Assembly (NCBI GenBank): GCA_028687335.1
Contig: JAQUAI010000005.1
Span: forward strand, 49,972-113,971
DNA: 64,000 nt
Reading direction: 5' to 3'
DNA from: Gallionella sp.
GTDB taxonomy: Bacteria > Pseudomonadota > Gammaproteobacteria > Burkholderiales > Gallionellaceae
The notes under the pieces are model-generated. The model saw nothing but the letters and a program-made list of their open reading frames with translations, was not told the DNA's origin and did no database searches. The position numbers and the translations under genes are program-made. Position 1 is the stretch's first letter; every line of letters starts with the position of its first letter. Below are positions 1-7,112 of the stretch, in pieces.

Positions 1-532
1 TTCTCAAAGCTGAACGCTCTGCCAATTCCGAGCTAATTGCACCCAAACGCTTTTTTAACTTTGCATGCAATTGATAAATATTGCCTGCTTCAAAAGGCTG
101 TGCATCAGGCACAAACAGTCGTGCATTATTTATTGCCGCGTCTTTTCTATCATCTTCTTTAAGTTGTAATGCAGCATACGCTTCGGCAAGAAAATAATTC
201 GCCACCACAGTGCAAACATTGTCGGAAGTTCTACTGCGAGCAATTAACTCTGTAGTCAAGTTGCTTCGCGAATGCGCTGCGTTTTCAATCTTTGACGTTA
301 TCTCCCGCTGAGTTAAATTCCGAGAAACATACTCCACCAAGGAATCATCATCATCGACCTCCCCAATTTGTAGCAGCGAAGGCTCAAGAATTCGAATCTC
401 AGCATCTAGGACGCGAAGGCACCATCTTTTGAGATCAAGAGCCTTTTTAAAGACTGATAATTGCACCCAGTAATAAAACTTCAGGAGTTTTAAATAAAAC
501 CAATTCCGTAGTTTTACAAGGAAAGATTTCAT
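1..532 (-). CDS. Hypothetical protein, partial (runs off the left edge), low GC
   Basis: Hand translation from ATG at 532 gives MKSFLVKLRNWFYLKLLKFYYWVQ...ELAERSALR, 177 codons without a stop. Absent from the ORF track because it is truncated. Confidence 0.7.
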   Translation of the reverse strand, partial: MKSFLVKLRNWFYLKLLKFYYWVQLSVFKKALDLKRWCLRVLDAEIRILEPSLLQIGEVDDDDSLVEYVSRNLTQREITSKIENAAHSRSNLTTELIARSRTSDNVCTVVANYFLAEAYAALQLKEDDRKDAAINNARLFVPDAQPFEAGNIYQLHAKLKKRLGAISSELAERSALR

Positions 533-559
533 TGGTAAGTTACTGGGCAGTGCTCTGCA

Positions 560-691
560 TTATCGACTAATCGGCTTATATCGAATCCGCTTAGGCTTCG
601 CACCCTCTTCACCCAAACGCTTCTTCTTATCCGCTTCGTATTCCTGATAGTTGCCATCAAAGAACGTCCACTTGGAATCACCTTCGCAGGC
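560..691 (-). repeat. Orphan copy of the last 43 codons plus stop of ettA
   Basis: Translates ACEGDSKWTFFDGNYQEYEADKKKRLGEEGAKPKRIRYKPISR*. By hand count 15/132 nt differ from 4750-4881, with one amino acid change (K/R). Confidence 0.95.
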
Positions 692-717
692 GTGGATGAA
701 GGAGGCAGAGGCATACG

Positions 718-999
718 TCAAGCCGCCTTTTCAAGACCAGCCTCAGGCATCAGCCTGTTCTGGTACAAGTCAGCAATGGGAAAGCAAAGATCATAGTCGC
801 CCCACACCAACTCGCCGTACTCGATGCGAAACGCCGCGAAGCGTGCGGGGTCTAGATAGGCACGAATATCGGGATGGCGCGAAAGCGACAGGAACGCTTT
901 GAAATCCACCGTCTGCGCCGTGCCGTCATCGAAAGACAGGCGCAGCGCATAATCGCCGACCTGCTCCACCGCTGTGATGTTAAGAGTTGCAGGAATCAT
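718..999 (-). CDS. DUF2442-family protein (putative antitoxin)
   Basis: YALRLSFDDG...GELVWGDYDLCFPIADLY pattern; overlaps the upstream DUF4160-like gene by 4 bp. Confidence 0.8.
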   Translation of the reverse strand: MIPATLNITAVEQVGDYALRLSFDDGTAQTVDFKAFLSLSRHPDIRAYLDPARFAAFRIEYGELVWGDYDLCFPIADLYQNRLMPEAGLEKAA

Positions 1000-1307
1000 T
1001 TCAGCCTCCTTGTGATGCGCTCCGATTTTACGGGTTTGTGCAGCACGAAAAAATCAATCCACTTACTCACAATCTCTGTCGCACGAGCAGAAACAAGCTC
1101 TTCAAAATGACGCATCTCAGTATTGCCTAGCGGAGCGCGTCCGACAACATCCGTATAGCGAATCTCGGCGACCTCGCCGTTAACAACGATGATCTCGGCG
1201 CGAGATTCACGGTCTTGGAACTTACCGTGGACATGCACAGGCTCATGCTCATGCTCATTGGCATAGAACATAATGATCAAACCAAAATATTCGTAGAGCT
1301 TGGGCAT
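996..1307 (-). CDS. DUF4160-family protein (putative toxin)
   Basis: MPKLYEYFGLIIMFYANEHEHEPVHVH...W motif; paired with DUF2442. Confidence 0.8.
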   Translation of the reverse strand: MPKLYEYFGLIIMFYANEHEHEPVHVHGKFQDRESRAEIIVVNGEVAEIRYTDVVGRAPLGNTEMRHFEELVSARATEIVSKWIDFFVLHKPVKSERITRRLK

Positions 1308-1328
1308 TACGCACTCCGTTCCATCAGA

Positions 1329-1424
1329 TCAATCAAACTCCAAACAATTGCGAAGCTGCCCCCTTTGATTCCGAGCCGGATTGAGGTGACGAATCCAGAC
1401 GTTGGTATCCGGCAGGTACAGCAT
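1329..1424 (-). pseudogene. vapC: 5' remnant of a PIN/VapC toxin gene
   Basis: ATG at 1424 overlaps the antitoxin stop (TAATG). MLYLPDTNVWIRHLNP is a typical VapC N-terminus (DTN motif); similarity is lost after about 16 codons. Confidence 0.7.
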
Positions 1425-1666
1425 TATTCCAAGTCCAGCCGCTGCTCGTATTCGCCCTGCGGCTCTCGAACCAAATGCTCGCCTTGCCATGCCCCAGCTG
1501 TTCGCTCCCACACATTTTTTGCATCACCAGCTTGGCTTGTTTTTTTGCCTGCAGCCTCGTCCAGCAGGATCAAAACCCGGACTGGCTGACCTTCTACCAA
1601 ATGGAGAGTTTTGGGCACAGCGATCTGTCCGTGTTCAAGATGCGAGTTAAATTCGATGGCTTGCAT
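1424..1666 (-). CDS. Putative VapB-type (AbrB-like) antitoxin
   Basis: 80 aa with GQIAVP...EGQPVRVLIL and GAWQGE...REPQGEYE patterns; AAGGAGG RBS; translationally coupled to the vapC remnant. Confidence 0.65.
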   Translation of the reverse strand: MQAIEFNSHLEHGQIAVPKTLHLVEGQPVRVLILLDEAAGKKTSQAGDAKNVWERTAGAWQGEHLVREPQGEYEQRLDLE

Positions 1667-1732
1667 GATGACCTCCTTGGTTAGCGGCGAACTGTCTTTT
1701 GCTAGTTTAGCTTAAACGGTTATAGGGTAGAT

Positions 1733-1795
1733 GCCGTTCACCCTTCGACAAGCTCGAATTAAACGGGGACAGACTGAGCTAACCCCTTTGATTCC
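1733..1795. repeat. Truncated CCCTTCGACA(A/G)GCTC REP-like element joined to GGGGACAGAC and GCTAACCCCTTTGATTC motifs
   Basis: 1741-1755 matches 4661-4675 at 14/15. 1765-1774 is identical to 3921-3930. 1778-1794 resembles 2575-2592. Confidence 0.7.
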
Positions 1796-1853
1796 CAGTG
1801 ACTCTCCAGGGGGCGGCCATAACAGTTCAATAGGTAAGAGAAACTGGAAGGTT

Positions 1854-2009
1854 TTACTTTCCCTGCTTGCCTGCGGCGGTGGATTTGCGCACAACAAATG
1901 GTGTACCGGTTTGCTCGGCCAGTTGGCGCGCCTTCTCGGATGCACGCATTAACGCCTGCGGAGCTTTTTGCATATCAGGGTCTTTTAAGTGAGAAACAGG
2001 AGTTTTCAT
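1854..2009 (-). CDS. Small (51 aa) partner of the zeta-like ATPase
   Basis: Hand translation MKTPVSHLKDPDMQKAPQALMRASEKARQLAEQTGTPFVVRKSTAAGKQGK*; ATGA overlap with the upstream gene's stop. Confidence 0.7.
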   Translation of the reverse strand: MKTPVSHLKDPDMQKAPQALMRASEKARQLAEQTGTPFVVRKSTAAGKQGK

Positions 2010-2542
2010 TTGTTCTGCCCTTCATCTAATAACACGGTAGGTGCGCCCGAATTGTCGTACAACTGCCAACAATCCACCAACAACTTGTAGCGCTCGAAAT
2101 TCTGGAGGCCATGCACAAAGCGCCGCCGAATAACATCCACAGGAACATTGTGCCCCCCTTGCTTAACACGAATGGACACACGCTCAATTGCCATCTCGAC
2201 ATCCGGCAAGGACAAGAAAAATAACTTCACCAAATACCCCGAAGAACGCCACACCGGGATCATCTGCGCATAAGACAAACCGGAAAGCGTCGTCTCAAAT
2301 GAAAAACTCTCGCCGCGCTTCGCATAATCCGCAATCGTCTCAAGCATTATCCGCCCCGCCTTGAACGCAGCCAGATCAGGCGCAAAAGGAGACAACCCGG
2401 CAGCAATCAGATCGGCATTCACAAAGTTTGGCAACTCCGCATCGGTCGGTAAGAACTCCCGCGCGAAGGTCGTCTTCCCCGCACCGTTCGGCCCGGCGAT
2501 GATGACAATGCGTTTATTGCTGGTCGATGATGTCATGGTCAC
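2006..2542 (-). CDS. Zeta-toxin-like / COG4185-type P-loop ATPase
   Basis: Walker A IAGPNGAGKTT; FVNADLIA, FSFETTLSG and RVKQGGHNVP motifs. Confidence 0.85.
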   Translation of the reverse strand: MTMTSSTSNKRIVIIAGPNGAGKTTFAREFLPTDAELPNFVNADLIAAGLSPFAPDLAAFKAGRIMLETIADYAKRGESFSFETTLSGLSYAQMIPVWRSSGYLVKLFFLSLPDVEMAIERVSIRVKQGGHNVPVDVIRRRFVHGLQNFERYKLLVDCWQLYDNSGAPTVLLDEGQNK

Positions 2543-2546
2543 TCAG

Positions 2547-2569
2547 AAAACGTGGTCTGTCCCCGATTA
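2547..2569 (+). repeat. 23-bp inverted repeat, left copy (AAAACGTGGTCTGTCCCCGATTA)
   Basis: Exact reverse complement of 3916-3938. Related partial motifs follow at 2575-2592 and 2617-2637. Confidence 0.9.
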
Positions 2570-2642
2570 TTCATGCTGACCCCCTTTAATTCAGTACCTA
2601 TGGTTTCTTAAAACTATTTGGGCTCCGTCCCCATTTCATTCA

Positions 2643-3911
2643 TTAAACAAATTTCTTAAGGCCGTTACTTTCAAGCAACTCATCGAAATCAGATCGAGGC
2701 ATTTTGTTAGTATCACGCAACTTATGGAGCAGCTCTTTTACTTCTATGCTTTCATAAATTTGACTGTTTTCTTGAATCCCTTGAATAAGAATTTTCTGTT
2801 GTTCAGTCGAAAAATCAGAAGCATAAAACATCATCTCTTGAGCCCACTCATTAGCCTCAGCATAATTTTTCGATGACAAATAAATTGCTATGAATTTATC
2901 TGCAAGCTCATACGTCAAACCAAAAAAGGAAGTACTTCGGAATTCAGCTCTTGTTGTTTTCGACAGACGAATAGATGCCTGCTTTTTAAGAGCCGGGAAA
3001 TCAAGTAAAAAATCCAAGTACTCCAAGTCTTCAAAGGGTAAATTGGCGACATAATTTTCAATTCTATGGTGTACATCCTGACCAAGAAAATTCCAGCAAT
3101 CCGAAATCTGACGAAACAACCGAATTACCAAACTCAAATTCGCATCATCCACTCCCTGGCACAAAGGGGTAAGTTTCTCTTTCATGGCAGATTCAAACAT
3201 CCTGGGATGTAAAGACCTGACCGCCCCTAATGCAGCCAACGTACGCCAGCGTAGCTTCCAGTCGAGACCTACTGAAAGCGCCTGCTTAAGCAATACCACA
3301 AGGAAGTTGCGAACCAATGAATCACGCGGACGCTTCAAAGGTCCTGATGAAAGTGAAGCAGTTGCTTTCTTTACATTATCAGGAAAGTACTCAGAATTTA
3401 CTTCTCGAACTAGCCTCTCAAGAGCTGACTTCCCTTGCACTGGCGGATGCTGAAGCAAATGTGTGACTGCTGATCGTATGTGTAAACGTGCCAACTCACC
3501 GGGAGGTTGGAATACCTGGTCATCTGAAAGCAATGAAGGGTGAGCACATCTGTTCCGATCCTGCTGCAACCTGTCCAAATCGACGTGCTCCAAATGCGAA
3601 AGGAGTTCAAATTGATCCCGTGCCACATCAAGAAGCTCGCGTTCAAACTTTAATGCGCTAGCCATATCATTCGACACACGAGCTTTATCTAAAGCTTCGA
3701 CGATATTTTCAGCAGCTTTATCGCCTGAAAGATTTAACTCTCGCAACTTGTCGATGATATCGAAACAAACCGCAATCCATGTAGCAACTATTGCAGCGCG
3801 GTACGCACCACCTCGATAACAATTAACAGCCTCTGAAATATACGAACGCGCACGTTCGTCTCGACATAAGAGAACAAGTTCATCCAAATCAGCAATCGAA
3901 GAATTAAGCAT
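2643..3911 (-). CDS. HEPN-like (RxxxxH) protein, candidate defence nuclease
   Basis: EAVNCY..GAYRAAIV N-terminal helix motif and RNRCAH motif; lower GC than the core genes. Confidence 0.6.
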   Translation of the reverse strand: MLNSSIADLDELVLLCRDERARSYISEAVNCYRGGAYRAAIVATWIAVCFDIIDKLRELNLSGDKAAENIVEALDKARVSNDMASALKFERELLDVARDQFELLSHLEHVDLDRLQQDRNRCAHPSLLSDDQVFQPPGELARLHIRSAVTHLLQHPPVQGKSALERLVREVNSEYFPDNVKKATASLSSGPLKRPRDSLVRNFLVVLLKQALSVGLDWKLRWRTLAALGAVRSLHPRMFESAMKEKLTPLCQGVDDANLSLVIRLFRQISDCWNFLGQDVHHRIENYVANLPFEDLEYLDFLLDFPALKKQASIRLSKTTRAEFRSTSFFGLTYELADKFIAIYLSSKNYAEANEWAQEMMFYASDFSTEQQKILIQGIQENSQIYESIEVKELLHKLRDTNKMPRSDFDELLESNGLKKFV

Positions 3912-3914
3912 AAG

Positions 3915-4235
3915 TTAATCGGGGACAGACCACGTTTTATTTTTCCCCAACTCCTCATGCACCCACTCAGGATCAAGGTCCGCACCGTTAGGCCACGTAA
4001 GTGCACCTAGTTCGATGTTAACTTTATTGAAAATTGCTTGATCCTTGAGCACAGCATAGACGCCCGCCTTCTCACTTGAGACCAAGCGAGACATATCGAC
4101 GACACCGCTCGTGCCGTCGTTGCAGGTGATTGAAAGCCGGTAACCGGGCTGCGGATTGACTGCGCTGACACGCCAAGGTGCAGCCGCGATTACTCCAGCG
4201 GGGCGATGTTCTTGGGTAACTGTTTCGATTGGCAT
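3915..4235 (-). CDS. DUF2442-family protein (second, divergent copy); C-terminus supplied by the 23-bp repeat
   Basis: YRLSITCNDGTSGVVD...GALTWPNGADLDPE; probable start MPIETV at 4235; ends KNKTWSVPD*. Confidence 0.8.
   Translation of the reverse strand: MPIETVTQEHRPAGVIAAAPWRVSAVNPQPGYRLSITCNDGTSGVVDMSRLVSSEKAGVYAVLKDQAIFNKVNIELGALTWPNGADLDPEWVHEELGKNKTWSVPD
3916..3938 (-). repeat. 23-bp inverted repeat, right copy
   Basis: TAATCGGGGACAGACCACGTTTT, the reverse complement of 2547-2569. Confidence 0.9.
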
Positions 4236-4450
4236 AGGTTCCAGTCCTCCATCAACTCGGTGCGATGTTGTGCTGCCCATTCGAGTACGAGTGCCTGCGC
4301 CCGTTTCGGCAGACTACCTTTGATGACTTCCAGCGTGCGGATGTCGACCAAGGCTTCGTACTCGCCATACATGGCGTGAAAGTGAGGCGGCGCATGCTCA
4401 CGCCAGAACATCTGGATGATGATCCCGAAGAACTGGCTGATGGTTGGCAT
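4190..4450 (-). CDS. DUF4160-family protein (second copy)
   Basis: MPTISQFFGIIIQMFWREHAPPHFHA.YG...LVLEWA..H..EL..DW...IAPLE. Confidence 0.88.
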   Translation of the reverse strand: MPTISQFFGIIIQMFWREHAPPHFHAMYGEYEALVDIRTLEVIKGSLPKRAQALVLEWAAQHRTELMEDWNLCQSKQLPKNIAPLE

Positions 4451-4455
4451 GTCGC

Positions 4456-4557
4456 TTACCGCGCGTTTGCTTCGTCGCGATTGAAGCGATAGCCGCGCGT
4501 GAAAATGATAGTCGCCTTGAAAACGTGTTTGCGCTTTTTGGGTTTGACTGTTTGCAT
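4456..4557 (-). CDS. 33-aa antitoxin-like peptide or remnant
   Basis: MQTVKPKKRKHVFKATIIFTRGYRFNRDEANAR* with AAGGAG RBS. The C-terminal F-x-RDEANAR resembles tails of small antitoxins that precede PIN toxins (from recall). Confidence 0.5.
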   Translation of the reverse strand: MQTVKPKKRKHVFKATIIFTRGYRFNRDEANAR

Positions 4558-4617
4558 GGTCAAGCTCCTTGTTGAATAAGTAGCATTCTATTCTGCACTA
4601 AGCATGTAAGCCAGCAA

Positions 4618-4740
4618 CCCTCACCCCCAGCCCCTCTCCCGCCAGCGGGCGAGGGGAGAGCCCTTCGACAGGCTCAGGGCGAACCTTACCCTCACCCCAA
4701 CAGCACCCCCACCCTAACCCTCCCCCGGAGGGAGAGGGGA
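4618..4740. repeat. Cluster of REP-like palindromes directly after the ettA stop
   Basis: CCCTCACCCCCAGCCCCTCTCCCGCCAGCGGGCGAGGGGA (4618-4657), GCCCTTCGACAGGCTCAGGGCGAACC (4660-4685) and CCCCCACCCTAACCCTCCCCCGGAGGGAGAGGGGA (4706-4740). Confidence 0.8.
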
Positions 4741-4749
4741 TAGATGCGG

Positions 4750-6420
<1,671 letters not shown>

Positions 6421-6500
6421 TTTGCGGATTCTCTGAATGCGGTTGGAAAGGCCGCAAGCTTACCGCAAAGGTGTGTCGAATGGGAGCGCGGGCGGGGAGA

Positions 6501-7112
6501 TTAGGGCAGGAACATGCGGAATACCGCGCCGTTTGCGTTGCTCAGGCTGATGTGGCCGTGGCGGCCTTCCAGTTGGTGCAGTTTGGCGATGCGGTTAGCT
6601 AGGTAAAGGCCGAGTCCGGTACCCACGCCGCTGGCGGCAGCGGGGATGTTGCCGCTGTTGGCGAGGATGTGTTCGGGGTAGCCTTCACCGTCATCCGCAA
6701 TTTCGATGACGAGTTGCTGATCTTGTTCGTAGGCGGAGAGGCTGATGTGGGTGCGCGTGAAGCGGCAGGCGTTATGCAGCGCGTTGGCCAGCGCCAGACG
6801 CACCAGCGCATCGTCAAAAAAAGCGAAGTCGGGTGCGCGTGCGGCATCAATTTCAAAACGCAGTCCGGGGTAGAGTTCTTGATATTCTGCGACGAGTATC
6901 GTCAAAAAATCCGCCGCATTGACCGAGTCGACATTGACGCGAATCAGGTCGGCATCTTGTTTGTGGATTAGCAGCATTTCGGTGAGTCGCCGCGCGGCAT
7001 TCATCGCAATCGACATTTCATGTTGCGCATCGCCACGTTTACCCAATTGCAGCGAGAGTTCAGCCAATTGGTTTTTGACATCGTGGACGATGGCGGCATA
7101 CAGGTCGTTCAT
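6501..7112 (-). CDS. Sensor-less histidine kinase (HisKA + HATPase)
   Basis: HDVKN H-box, NALHNA N-box, DDGEG G1 and GTGLGL G2. Confidence 0.88.
   Translation of the reverse strand: MNDLYAAIVHDVKNQLAELSLQLGKRGDAQHEMSIAMNAARRLTEMLLIHKQDADLIRVNVDSVNAADFLTILVAEYQELYPGLRFEIDAARAPDFAFFDDALVRLALANALHNACRFTRTHISLSAYEQDQQLVIEIADDGEGYPEHILANSGNIPAAASGVGTGLGLYLANRIAKLHQLEGRHGHISLSNANGAVFRMFLP

Follow-up and report, generated by a model that had tools for sequence, protein, structure and literature searches.

The window, that is, the whole 64-kb stretch of DNA that was analysed, lies on contig C15 of the genome and carries an array of small gene cassettes beside ettA. Short repeats of two families, here called M and E2, are located at the borders of these cassettes (table 1).

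Table 1. Genes and repeat units of the ettA cassette array
Feature	Position	Strand	Remarks
Displaced ettA 3'-end copy	560..706	-	86% identical to 4750-4896; far border of array segment
E2 copy GGAATCAAAGGGGGCAGCTTCGCAATTG	1344..1375	-	About 40 nt upstream of DUF4160a start; L180 homology stops at 1364
Truncated M head	1760..1774	+	TAAAC, then GGGGACAGAC; cut after tenth core base
E2-like partial unit GGAATCAAAGGGGTTAGCT	1777..1797	-	Adjoins truncated M head; L179 homology stops at 1798
Zeta-toxin-like ATPase (2006-2542) and overlapping 51-aa ORF (1854-2009)	1854..2542	-	
Complete M unit, exact inverted copy of 3916-3938	2547..2569	-	Tail about 10 nt upstream of zeta-like ATG (2536)
E2 remnant GAATTAAAGGGGGTCAGCATG	2572..2592	-	Truncated relative to L180 (alignment)
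Foreign segment with 422-aa gene	2586..3914	-	
Degenerate head-like piece GAAATGGGGACGGAGCCC	2617..2637	-	Within insert, 3' of 422-aa gene; by eye only
422-aa ORF	2643..3911	-	
DUF4160b/DUF2442b pair	3915..4450	-	Kept beside ettA in relatives
Complete M unit	3916..3938	+	Head flank TAATC, then GGGGACAGACCACGTTTT
Intact ettA (ABC-F)	4750..6420	-	Hotspot anchor

The perfect inverted pair that the original prediction had placed around the 422-aa gene was confirmed. In the 64-kb window, the exact reverse complement of AAAACGTGGTCTGTCCCCGATTA (2547-2569) occurs at 3916-3938, each copy being 23 nt long, and the ATG of the 422-aa ORF (3911-3909) indeed lies 4 nt past the end of the right copy. The two copies are oriented head-in with a spacing of 1346 nt, which is not the close spacing of a REPIN. 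Read on the minus strand, the right copy encodes the C-terminal residues of DUF2442b, ..KNKTWSVPD, together with its stop codon, and this overlap is also seen in G025, G030, and L179-L183. The zeta-like pair is enclosed by motifs at 1765(+) and 2555(-), as had been stated; these belong to two head-out M copies, the truncated head being the left arm, and RAYT genes are framed in the same way. With at most one mismatch, GGGGACAGAC was found at 1765(+), 2555(-), and 3921(+) and nowhere else in the window. The bare count of the 10-mer is not above chance (at least three copies were reached by 39 of 100 shuffles). Rather, the weight is carried by the perfect 23-nt pair, by the rare variant CACGTTTT that is common to the window copies (the consensus being CACGGTTT), and by rarity genome-wide. 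Since only five exact copies of GGGGACAGAC exist in the entire 2.4-Mb genome, the three copies within 2.2 kb represent a genuine cluster. The related motifs listed earlier at 1778-1794, 2575-2592, and 2617-2637 are present, and a further one at 1344-1375 had been overlooked; the piece at 2617-2637 is only weakly attributable to M. The element described as interrupted at 1761 proved to be another repeat of the genome (CCCTTCGACAAGCTC, 1741-1755), which occurs at 6 to 8 places and has a fuller relative at 4660-4684.

All of these motifs had been treated as one family, and this view had to be abandoned. M has the consensus RAAAYM-GGGGACAGACCACGGTTT and a unit length of about 24-26 nt, and the GGGGT(C/T)AGC motifs belong to E2 (..AAAGG-GGTCAGCATCGCAAT..), whose head is similar to that of M. 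The possibility that the GGGGT(C/T)AGC pieces are stutter copies of the M head was considered and rejected, since E2 proved to be distinct and to have a conserved 15-mer of its own. E2 was detected in 29 of 36 genus genomes and M in 24 of 36 (reversed control: 0 matches in the same set). An Rfam scan of positions 1-7000 under permissive settings gave no match other than one chance lncRNA, and a full-text literature search with 12-mers returned human tau primers only and no bacterial description. Genome profiles of 11-mers and 13-mers across positions 1-5000 were too noisy to show further families.

M was compared with the REP/REPIN repeats and their RAYT (TnpA_REP) transposases (Nunvar et al.; Bertels and Rainey; Ton-Hoang et al.; PMC3686654, PMC3116915, PMC5581495). 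The definition of REPs includes a conserved tetranucleotide, GT(A/G)G, at the 5' end and a palindrome after it (PMC3686654). In contrast, no 5' GT(A/G)G with a palindrome was found in the M consensus, and the GTGG on its complementary strand is not followed by a palindrome; the single unit is nonpalindromic, and no hairpin was found in it, its folding being no better than that of shuffles (z -0.9 and 0.0). Because the single unit has neither a fold nor GTAG, M lies outside the textbook definition of REPs. Its copy number also differs: REPs reach tens to hundreds of copies per genome, but M numbers about 7 in this genome and 1-13 in the genus genomes (two mismatches allowed). A classical REP is specific to a strain or at most a species (PMC3686654), whereas the 18-nt core of M is identical across proteobacterial classes: the exact 18-mer was found in more than 120 stretches from Beta- and Gammaproteobacteria, where most copies form head-out doublets with a spacing of 17-60 nt. 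Such close doublets are common, giving the family as a whole the arrangement of REPINs, and the one example that was folded reached -24 kcal/mol (z -8.9), resembling the hairpin-forming inverted doublets of REPINs. Each genome has its own dominant variant, again as in REP/REPIN systems. Two further traits set M apart. The head side carries partial duplications, the head-flank 6-mer being repeated upstream in 71 of 298 M copies versus 6 of 298 for the tail flank, and these stutter units begin 6-9 nt 5' of GGGG. Moreover, genes other than RAYT are framed by two head-out units: the window has the zeta pair in such a frame, and G025 has VapBC.

The M copies are either intergenic or overlap last codons only, a confinement expected of REPs, and most follow directly after stop codons, as in REP/REPIN-RAYT systems. 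In relatives, M adjoins the genes for PHO4, Mur ligase, FtsY, and CDP-alcohol phosphatidyltransferase, lying at most 13 nt from the stop codons of housekeeping genes. M is thus not specific to cassettes, and the claim that the motifs are confined to the borders of modules did not hold. Of the four copies of an IS30-like element, two directly adjoin M, with a fixed offset. Enterobacterial REP/BIME sequences are favored targets of IS insertion and junctions of rearrangement. The IS30-like element at M recalls this behavior; the repeat and IS families are different ones, and the junctions here part cassettes beside ettA.

The original prediction had supposed a RAYT/HUH-type transposase encoded elsewhere, and in this respect it was borne out. 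A RAYT gene lies on contig C3 (210-929), with M 50 nt upstream of it. It is the sole PF01797 match in the genome (E 1e-12) and therefore single-copy; decayed 5' RAYT remnants are present on C12. The protein contains H60-V-H62 and Y120 within RYIELNP, that is, the HUH motif and a single tyrosine, and we take Y120 to be the catalytic tyrosine by its likeness to IS608 TnpA. Against the NCBIfam model REP_Tyr_transpos (NF047646) it scored 60.2 bits, below the cut-off of 80, and a sequence search of the PDB with it gave no relative. The C3 RAYT belongs to a divergent clade. In the genus set, M was found within about 60 nt in 11 of 12 RAYT matches (at least 59% identity), with RAYT flanked by inverted M in G026 and G050, for example, as REPs flank their cognate RAYT. 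In the broad set, head-out M stands on both sides of 10 of 12 RAYT homologues (60-80% identity) and on one side in the remaining 2. A short extragenic repeat inverted around a single-copy Y1/HUH transposase gene is the arrangement of REP/REPIN-RAYT systems. No RAYT was found in 11 genus genomes with M by a search with this RAYT query. E2 flanks a RAYT paralogue in G014, the sole locus behind a link between E2 and RAYT. Judging from these gene neighborhoods, M is very probably the cognate repeat of one RAYT clade.

IS200/IS605 elements and their nonautonomous derivatives (PATEs) employ the same enzyme family, HUH with a single catalytic tyrosine, and by analogy the substrate of RAYT is likely to be single-stranded DNA that is recognized through a hairpin and cleaved a few nucleotides from the hairpin foot. 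Unlike the distinct left and right hairpins of those elements, the ends formed by M are inverted copies of one sequence. The RAYT gene is also single-copy, and no target tetranucleotide is defined.

Comparison of empty and filled sites in relatives, which had been suggested together with the original prediction, revealed an empty site for the 422-aa gene. The empty form consists of M(-), E2, and M(+) with about 80 nt between the arms (L180:5744-5862), and the window unit at 2547..2569 matches its M(+) arm. In the window, the insert is placed between the head flank of M(-) and E2 and is bordered by ATTAA at each end (3919-3915, 2590-2586), and its GC content is 42%, compared with 52-55% in the flanks. 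The 422-aa gene is promoterless, its ATG following the stop codon of DUF2442b by 3 nt. The window pair is thus a pre-existing head-in doublet, in whose spacer a foreign gene was later placed at ATTAA. Because the empty form has both arms and the insert lies between them, the 23-nt pair did not originate with the 422-aa gene and does not represent its terminal repeat. The gene was not found among the seven genomes of its family in an order-wide draw, and a scan for repeat-mediated import found neither M nor E2 near its homologues in other lineages. A Pfam search of the protein gave no match; a precomputed record lists PF27235 AF_1680. In an exact-protein look-up, matches to the 422-aa and zeta proteins were confined to two short contigs from a single sample, and DUF4160a was without a record.

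Every testable motif site coincided with a breakpoint of homology to related genomes. Homology of the DUF4160b/DUF2442b block stops at 3914-3920 in L179, L180, L183, G025, and G030, and further breakpoints at 1364 and 1798 both fall at E2-type motifs. Based on these observations, we hypothesized that the motifs belong to two short repeat families of the REP/REPIN kind, some copies being whole and others decayed, with M as the RAYT-cognate family and E2 as the second (probability about 0.7). RAYT would nick single-stranded DNA on the 5' side of the GGGG head, at a distance of about 5-9 nt; the stutter duplications begin at this position, and the breakpoints of the array fall there. Such nicking would turn the unit edges into favored sites for breakage and joining, and the two window copies may owe their identity to copying of the 23-nt unit or to its gene conversion. 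That the edges of M and E2 units serve as recombination junctions in the array is, in our view, an evenly balanced proposition. The further step, in which RAYT itself would catalyze the gain or exchange of cassettes, seems unlikely.

Several other explanations were considered for the motifs as such. A perfect 23-bp inverted repeat around a single gene of foreign composition would be expected if a small IS- or MITE-like element carried the 422-aa gene and had the arms as its terminal inverted repeats. We regard this as very improbable, since the arms of an IS should be absent from the empty site, and the empty form keeps both of them in L181 as well as in L180. Furthermore, the insert ends inside the arms, between M(-) and E2, and shows no inverted repeat at its own ends by eye; the arms are units of a genome- and class-wide family that occurs singly, and domain searches found no transposase domain in the 422-aa protein. 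The array, in which small cassettes without promoters each precede a short conserved site, also calls to mind the sites of a tyrosine or serine recombinase, either integron-like (attC-like) or of the Xer type. As in integrons, many of the small and mostly promoterless genes are toxin-antitoxin pairs, and the cargo of relatives differs exactly at the conserved site. However, there is no integron integrase, attC structure, or core site; neither M nor E2 contains RYYYAAC/GTTRRRY cores, M has no dyad symmetry, and no PF00589 gene is present on contig C15, the three of the genome being on C7, C8, and C25. M is instead tightly linked to the genes of a Y1 transposase and is scattered at the ends of housekeeping genes, far from any array. 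An attC or dif reading was accordingly rejected on sequence grounds and from the lack of a recombinase gene on the contig. M-rich genomes also lack a recombinase of this kind, and a role of the motifs as recombinase sites is highly unlikely. A regulatory function of the motifs in toxin-antitoxin operons, as operators, promoters, or terminators, is scarcely credible. Although M or E2 stands 10-55 nt upstream of the first gene in several cassettes (zeta, VapB, NERD, and RAYT), both orientations are seen, copies are frequent at 3' ends and between convergent genes, and there is neither a terminator-like fold nor an Rfam match.

More weight is due to the possibility that the repeats are passive. 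M and E2 would have been spread by RAYT and have settled after stop codons, while the cassettes were shuffled by other routes (replacement of the ettA 3' end, homologous recombination, and illegitimate joins), the coincidence of motifs and borders arising through gene ends. The proximity of M to the stop codons of housekeeping genes fits this account. The ettA' remnants, evidence of a further insertion route at work in this array, and the homologous zeta pair without M in G025 and G006 also agree with it. Indeed, the borders of cassettes are gene ends and M also lies at ordinary gene ends, so that the match between breakpoints and motifs could in part be passive. Nevertheless, the breakpoints lie within 7 nt of the outer edge of M in six relatives' genomes, where four different sequences follow; this edge is also the start point of the stutter units, and two cargo genes begin 3-10 nt beyond it. 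A purely passive role is therefore improbable. At the opposite extreme, the RAYT-cognate units could serve an integrase-free cassette system as its joining sites, with promoterless genes gained, lost, and swapped exactly at unit edges. RAYT would then nick single-stranded DNA outside the GGGG head, at a distance of a few nucleotides, and join it to other DNA, and cargo between two head-out units (RAYT, the zeta pair, or VapBC) could move as a panhandle. We consider such a system rather doubtful.

Under the preferred reading of M and E2 as repeats of the REP/REPIN kind, the motifs represent a variation on an already known type of bacterial repeat rather than a new mobilization system. The second mobilization layer that had been envisaged inside the ettA hotspot is thus replaced by RAYT-linked repeats of known kind. 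For annotation, the motifs should be read as RAYT-type repeats, neither as IS ends nor as a new recombinase system. The role of RAYTs in the cell is unsettled, and the M family leaves unusually readable traces: a core of 18 nt that is invariant across classes, stutter duplications that point to a fixed nick site, two-unit frames with nontransposase cargo, and a hotspot with matched empty and filled sites in relatives. If the integrase-free interpretation were true, RAYTs would gain a role in building arrays of defense and toxin-antitoxin genes.

The short motifs at the cassette junctions are repeats of the RAYT type (REP-associated tyrosine transposase), and they belong to two families. The main motif represents family M, one arm of a REPIN-like hairpin. 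The GGGGT(C/T)AGC pieces, which the original prediction had treated as related to it, belong to a separate family, E2. The M core, RGGGGACAGACCACGGTTT, was found in 24 of 36 genomes of the same genus at 1-13 copies each, and a reversed control of this core gave 0 matches in the 36; the extended consensus is RAAAYM-GGGGACAGACCACGGTTT-Y. In a collection with one genome per species, the exact 18-mer occurred in >120 stretches, from hosts including Gallionella, Sideroxydans, Accumulibacter, Dechloromonas, Hydrogenophaga, Pseudomonas, Halieaceae and tubeworm symbionts. The remaining M copies in those stretches were mostly inverted doublets with their GGGG ends (heads) outward, spaced 17-60 nt. For such a doublet the computed folding energy is -24 kcal/mol (z -8.9); a single unit shows no advantage over shuffled sequences. 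Our literature search found no published description of the M sequence in a bacterial context. An M-like 18-mer (GGGGACAGACCCCGGTT.) is repeated three times with a 67-nt period, like a CRISPR array, in a Ruminococcus MAG (L111, 2079-2230); this is probably an unrelated chance likeness.

M follows the REPIN/RAYT pattern in a variant form, and therefore the guess that a RAYT is encoded elsewhere was right. The genome's only Y1 transposase gene lies on contig C3 (210-929), with an M copy 50 nt upstream. Its protein begins with MPRRARI, matches PF01797 (E 1e-12) and carries H60-V-H62 and, within RYIELNP, Y120; against NF047646 it reaches 60 bits, below the cut-off of 80. Two further M copies, on contig C12, precede decayed 5' remnants of a RAYT gene, left over from former RAYT copies. 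Across the 36 genus genomes, M was located within ~60 nt of 11 of 12 RAYT matches (at least 59% identity), and the 12 RAYT homologues (60-80% identical) within the 18-mer loci had head-out M on both sides (10) or on one side (2). Classical REPs are defined by GT(A/G)G plus a palindrome and are strain- to species-specific (PMC3686654), whereas M lacks both defining elements, has a low copy number and keeps its core invariant across classes.

The head of M also bears a footprint. In many genomes a stretch made up of the few bases on the 5' side of GGGG plus the first 3-13 core bases forms tandem copies immediately upstream. For 71 of 298 copies the head-flank 6-mer was found again no more than 54 nt upstream; for the tail flank the count was 6 of 298. 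The duplicated units begin 6-9 nt before GGGG, most commonly 7. We infer that these repeats record successive rounds of breakage and copying at one fixed position beyond the head. Four copies of one and the same end of an IS30-like element, a segment encoding a transposase C-terminus (..LNHRPRKCLNYRTPHDVF..), are present in the source genome (C3:102-127; C15:148341, a contig end; C15:49245, ~730 nt to the left of where the window begins; C19:101), three of them at contig ends. Two of the four lie 18-19 nt from an M head in the same orientation, which suggests that this element targets M.

E2 (consensus ..AAAGG-GGTCAGCATCGCAAT..) was present in 29 of the 36 genus genomes. In genome G014 (L194, G014:C3:253065-256079), E2 units at positions 1501 and 2760 stand head-out around a RAYT paralogue, with E2 15 nt before its ATG. 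This paralogue (MPRRPRIKLA..) is 55% identical to the RAYT of the source genome, in which no counterpart of it occurs. Because this is a single case, the link between E2 and RAYT is only suggestive; it is a hint that every RAYT clade may be paired with a repeat of its own, with a head of A-rich flank plus GGGG in common.

Repeat units and sequences beyond the outer edge of M
Feature	Location	Description
E2 pieces (GGGGT(C/T)AGC)	window, 1344-1375, 1777-1797, 2572-2592	members of E2, a family distinct from M
M units with RAYT leader	source genome, C12:78350-78750	two units, each followed by a conserved leader; one then also by ~25 decayed RAYT codons
Beyond M edge	window	422-aa gene
Beyond M edge	L179, L182	297-aa gene, likely ATG 7 nt past the DUF2442b stop codon
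Beyond M edge	L180, L181	duplicated DUF2442 3' end and second M
Beyond M edge	L183	ettA 3' remnant

The exact inverted 23-bp pair noted around the 422-aa gene is present: AAAACGTGGTCTGTCCCCGATTA lies at 2547-2569 and its reverse complement at 3916-3938, where it stops 4 nt short of the ATG that opens the ORF (2643-3911, minus strand). With at most one mismatch, GGGGACAGAC occurs in the 64-kb window only at 1765(+), 2555(-) and 3921(+). One related motif (1344-1375) had been overlooked. Exact copies number five in the whole 2.4-Mb assembly. Taken by itself, the number of 10-mers does not exceed chance (three are reached in 39 of 100 shuffles); what does exceed it are the 23-nt pair with its perfect match, the grouping of 3 of ~7 genome copies within 2.2 kb, and a shared rare variant (CACGTTTT vs consensus CACGGTTT).

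Empty and filled sites were compared using five public contigs (L179-L183) that encode an identical DUF4160b protein beside ettA (85-89% DNA identity to the window). The gene order ettA, DUF4160b, DUF2442b is conserved in each of them, as is the end of the DUF2442b ORF within M (..KNKTWSVP.*). They cease to be homologous to the window at 3914-3920, where the M unit has its outer edge; genomes G025 and G030 behave likewise. The M unit encodes the last seven codons and stop of DUF2442b (KNKTWSVPD*) in at least seven genomes (window 3915-3938, L025, L038, L179-L183), and M has therefore become the 3' end of this gene. In relatives (L009, L013, L017, L018) the TGA of a HigA-like antitoxin gene overlaps the M tail.

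The empty form of the pair was found at L180:5744-5862, in the order M(-), GATTAA TAAAA, E2, ~45 nt, GAATAACC, M(+), followed by a NERD-like gene; this is a head-in pair with ~80 nt between its arms. The window aligns as the same structure with ~1.33 kb (2586-3914) inserted at ATTAA, which is found on both sides of the insert, and ~50 nt absent from the E2 side. GC is 42% in the insert against 52-55% around it, and the 422-aa ORF begins 3 nt past the DUF2442b stop codon. Since L180 has both arms, the pair is older than the insertion and does not represent the terminal repeats of an element carrying the 422-aa gene; this gene is foreign, lacks a promoter and was inserted into the spacer of a doublet that already existed. 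In L180 the two arms are not identical, so the perfect identity in the window is secondary, presumably because the 23-nt unit was copied or converted. The 422-aa gene was not found in seven same-family genomes of an order-wide draw, and its distant homologues have no M or E2. In Logan sample SRR22315507, the only other sample in which the exact 422-aa and zeta proteins occur, they are encoded on two short contigs (1624 and 1301 nt), which stop ~31 nt past the stop codon of the 422-aa gene and start 13 nt ahead of the zeta ATG, around the M/E2 junction; these breaks could reflect low coverage or population heterogeneity.

The motifs had been predicted to lie only at module borders, as sites where a trans-acting enzyme shuffles cassettes. 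Their edges do coincide with breakpoints, at 3914-3920, at 1364 in E2 (versus L180) and at 1798 beside an E2-like piece (versus L179), but M also adjoins housekeeping genes: in relatives it follows a PHO4 transporter gene at 5 nt and a CDP-alcohol phosphatidyltransferase gene at 10 nt, and it lies beside Mur ligase and FtsY genes. G025 has the same cassettes in a different order, with a DUF4160 gene cut right beside an M unit. Two head-out M units enclose the zeta pair in the window (the left one truncated), a VapBC pair in G025 and, likewise, RAYT genes; in other taxa, genes of all kinds lie between M doublets. The zeta cassette occurs without M in G025 and G006, and the window's contig has no tyrosine recombinase gene. 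RAYT itself may make the cassette joins, although this is rather unlikely. The ettA 3' remnants in the array show that a second insertion route works there. Displaced remnants lie directly beyond an M head at L183:637-730 and in L037 (G006:C91, ~3079-3120 of the locus), which links replacement of the ettA end with M. A further repeat family, CCCTTCGACA(A/G)GCTC.. with arms of the GGGAGAGGGG type, is found between ettA and the array (4620-4745) and, as a truncated copy, at 1741-1755; its 15-mer occurs at 6 to 8 genome places. M is not a cassette-specific site, and the edges of M and E2 are recurrent breakpoints in the ettA array.
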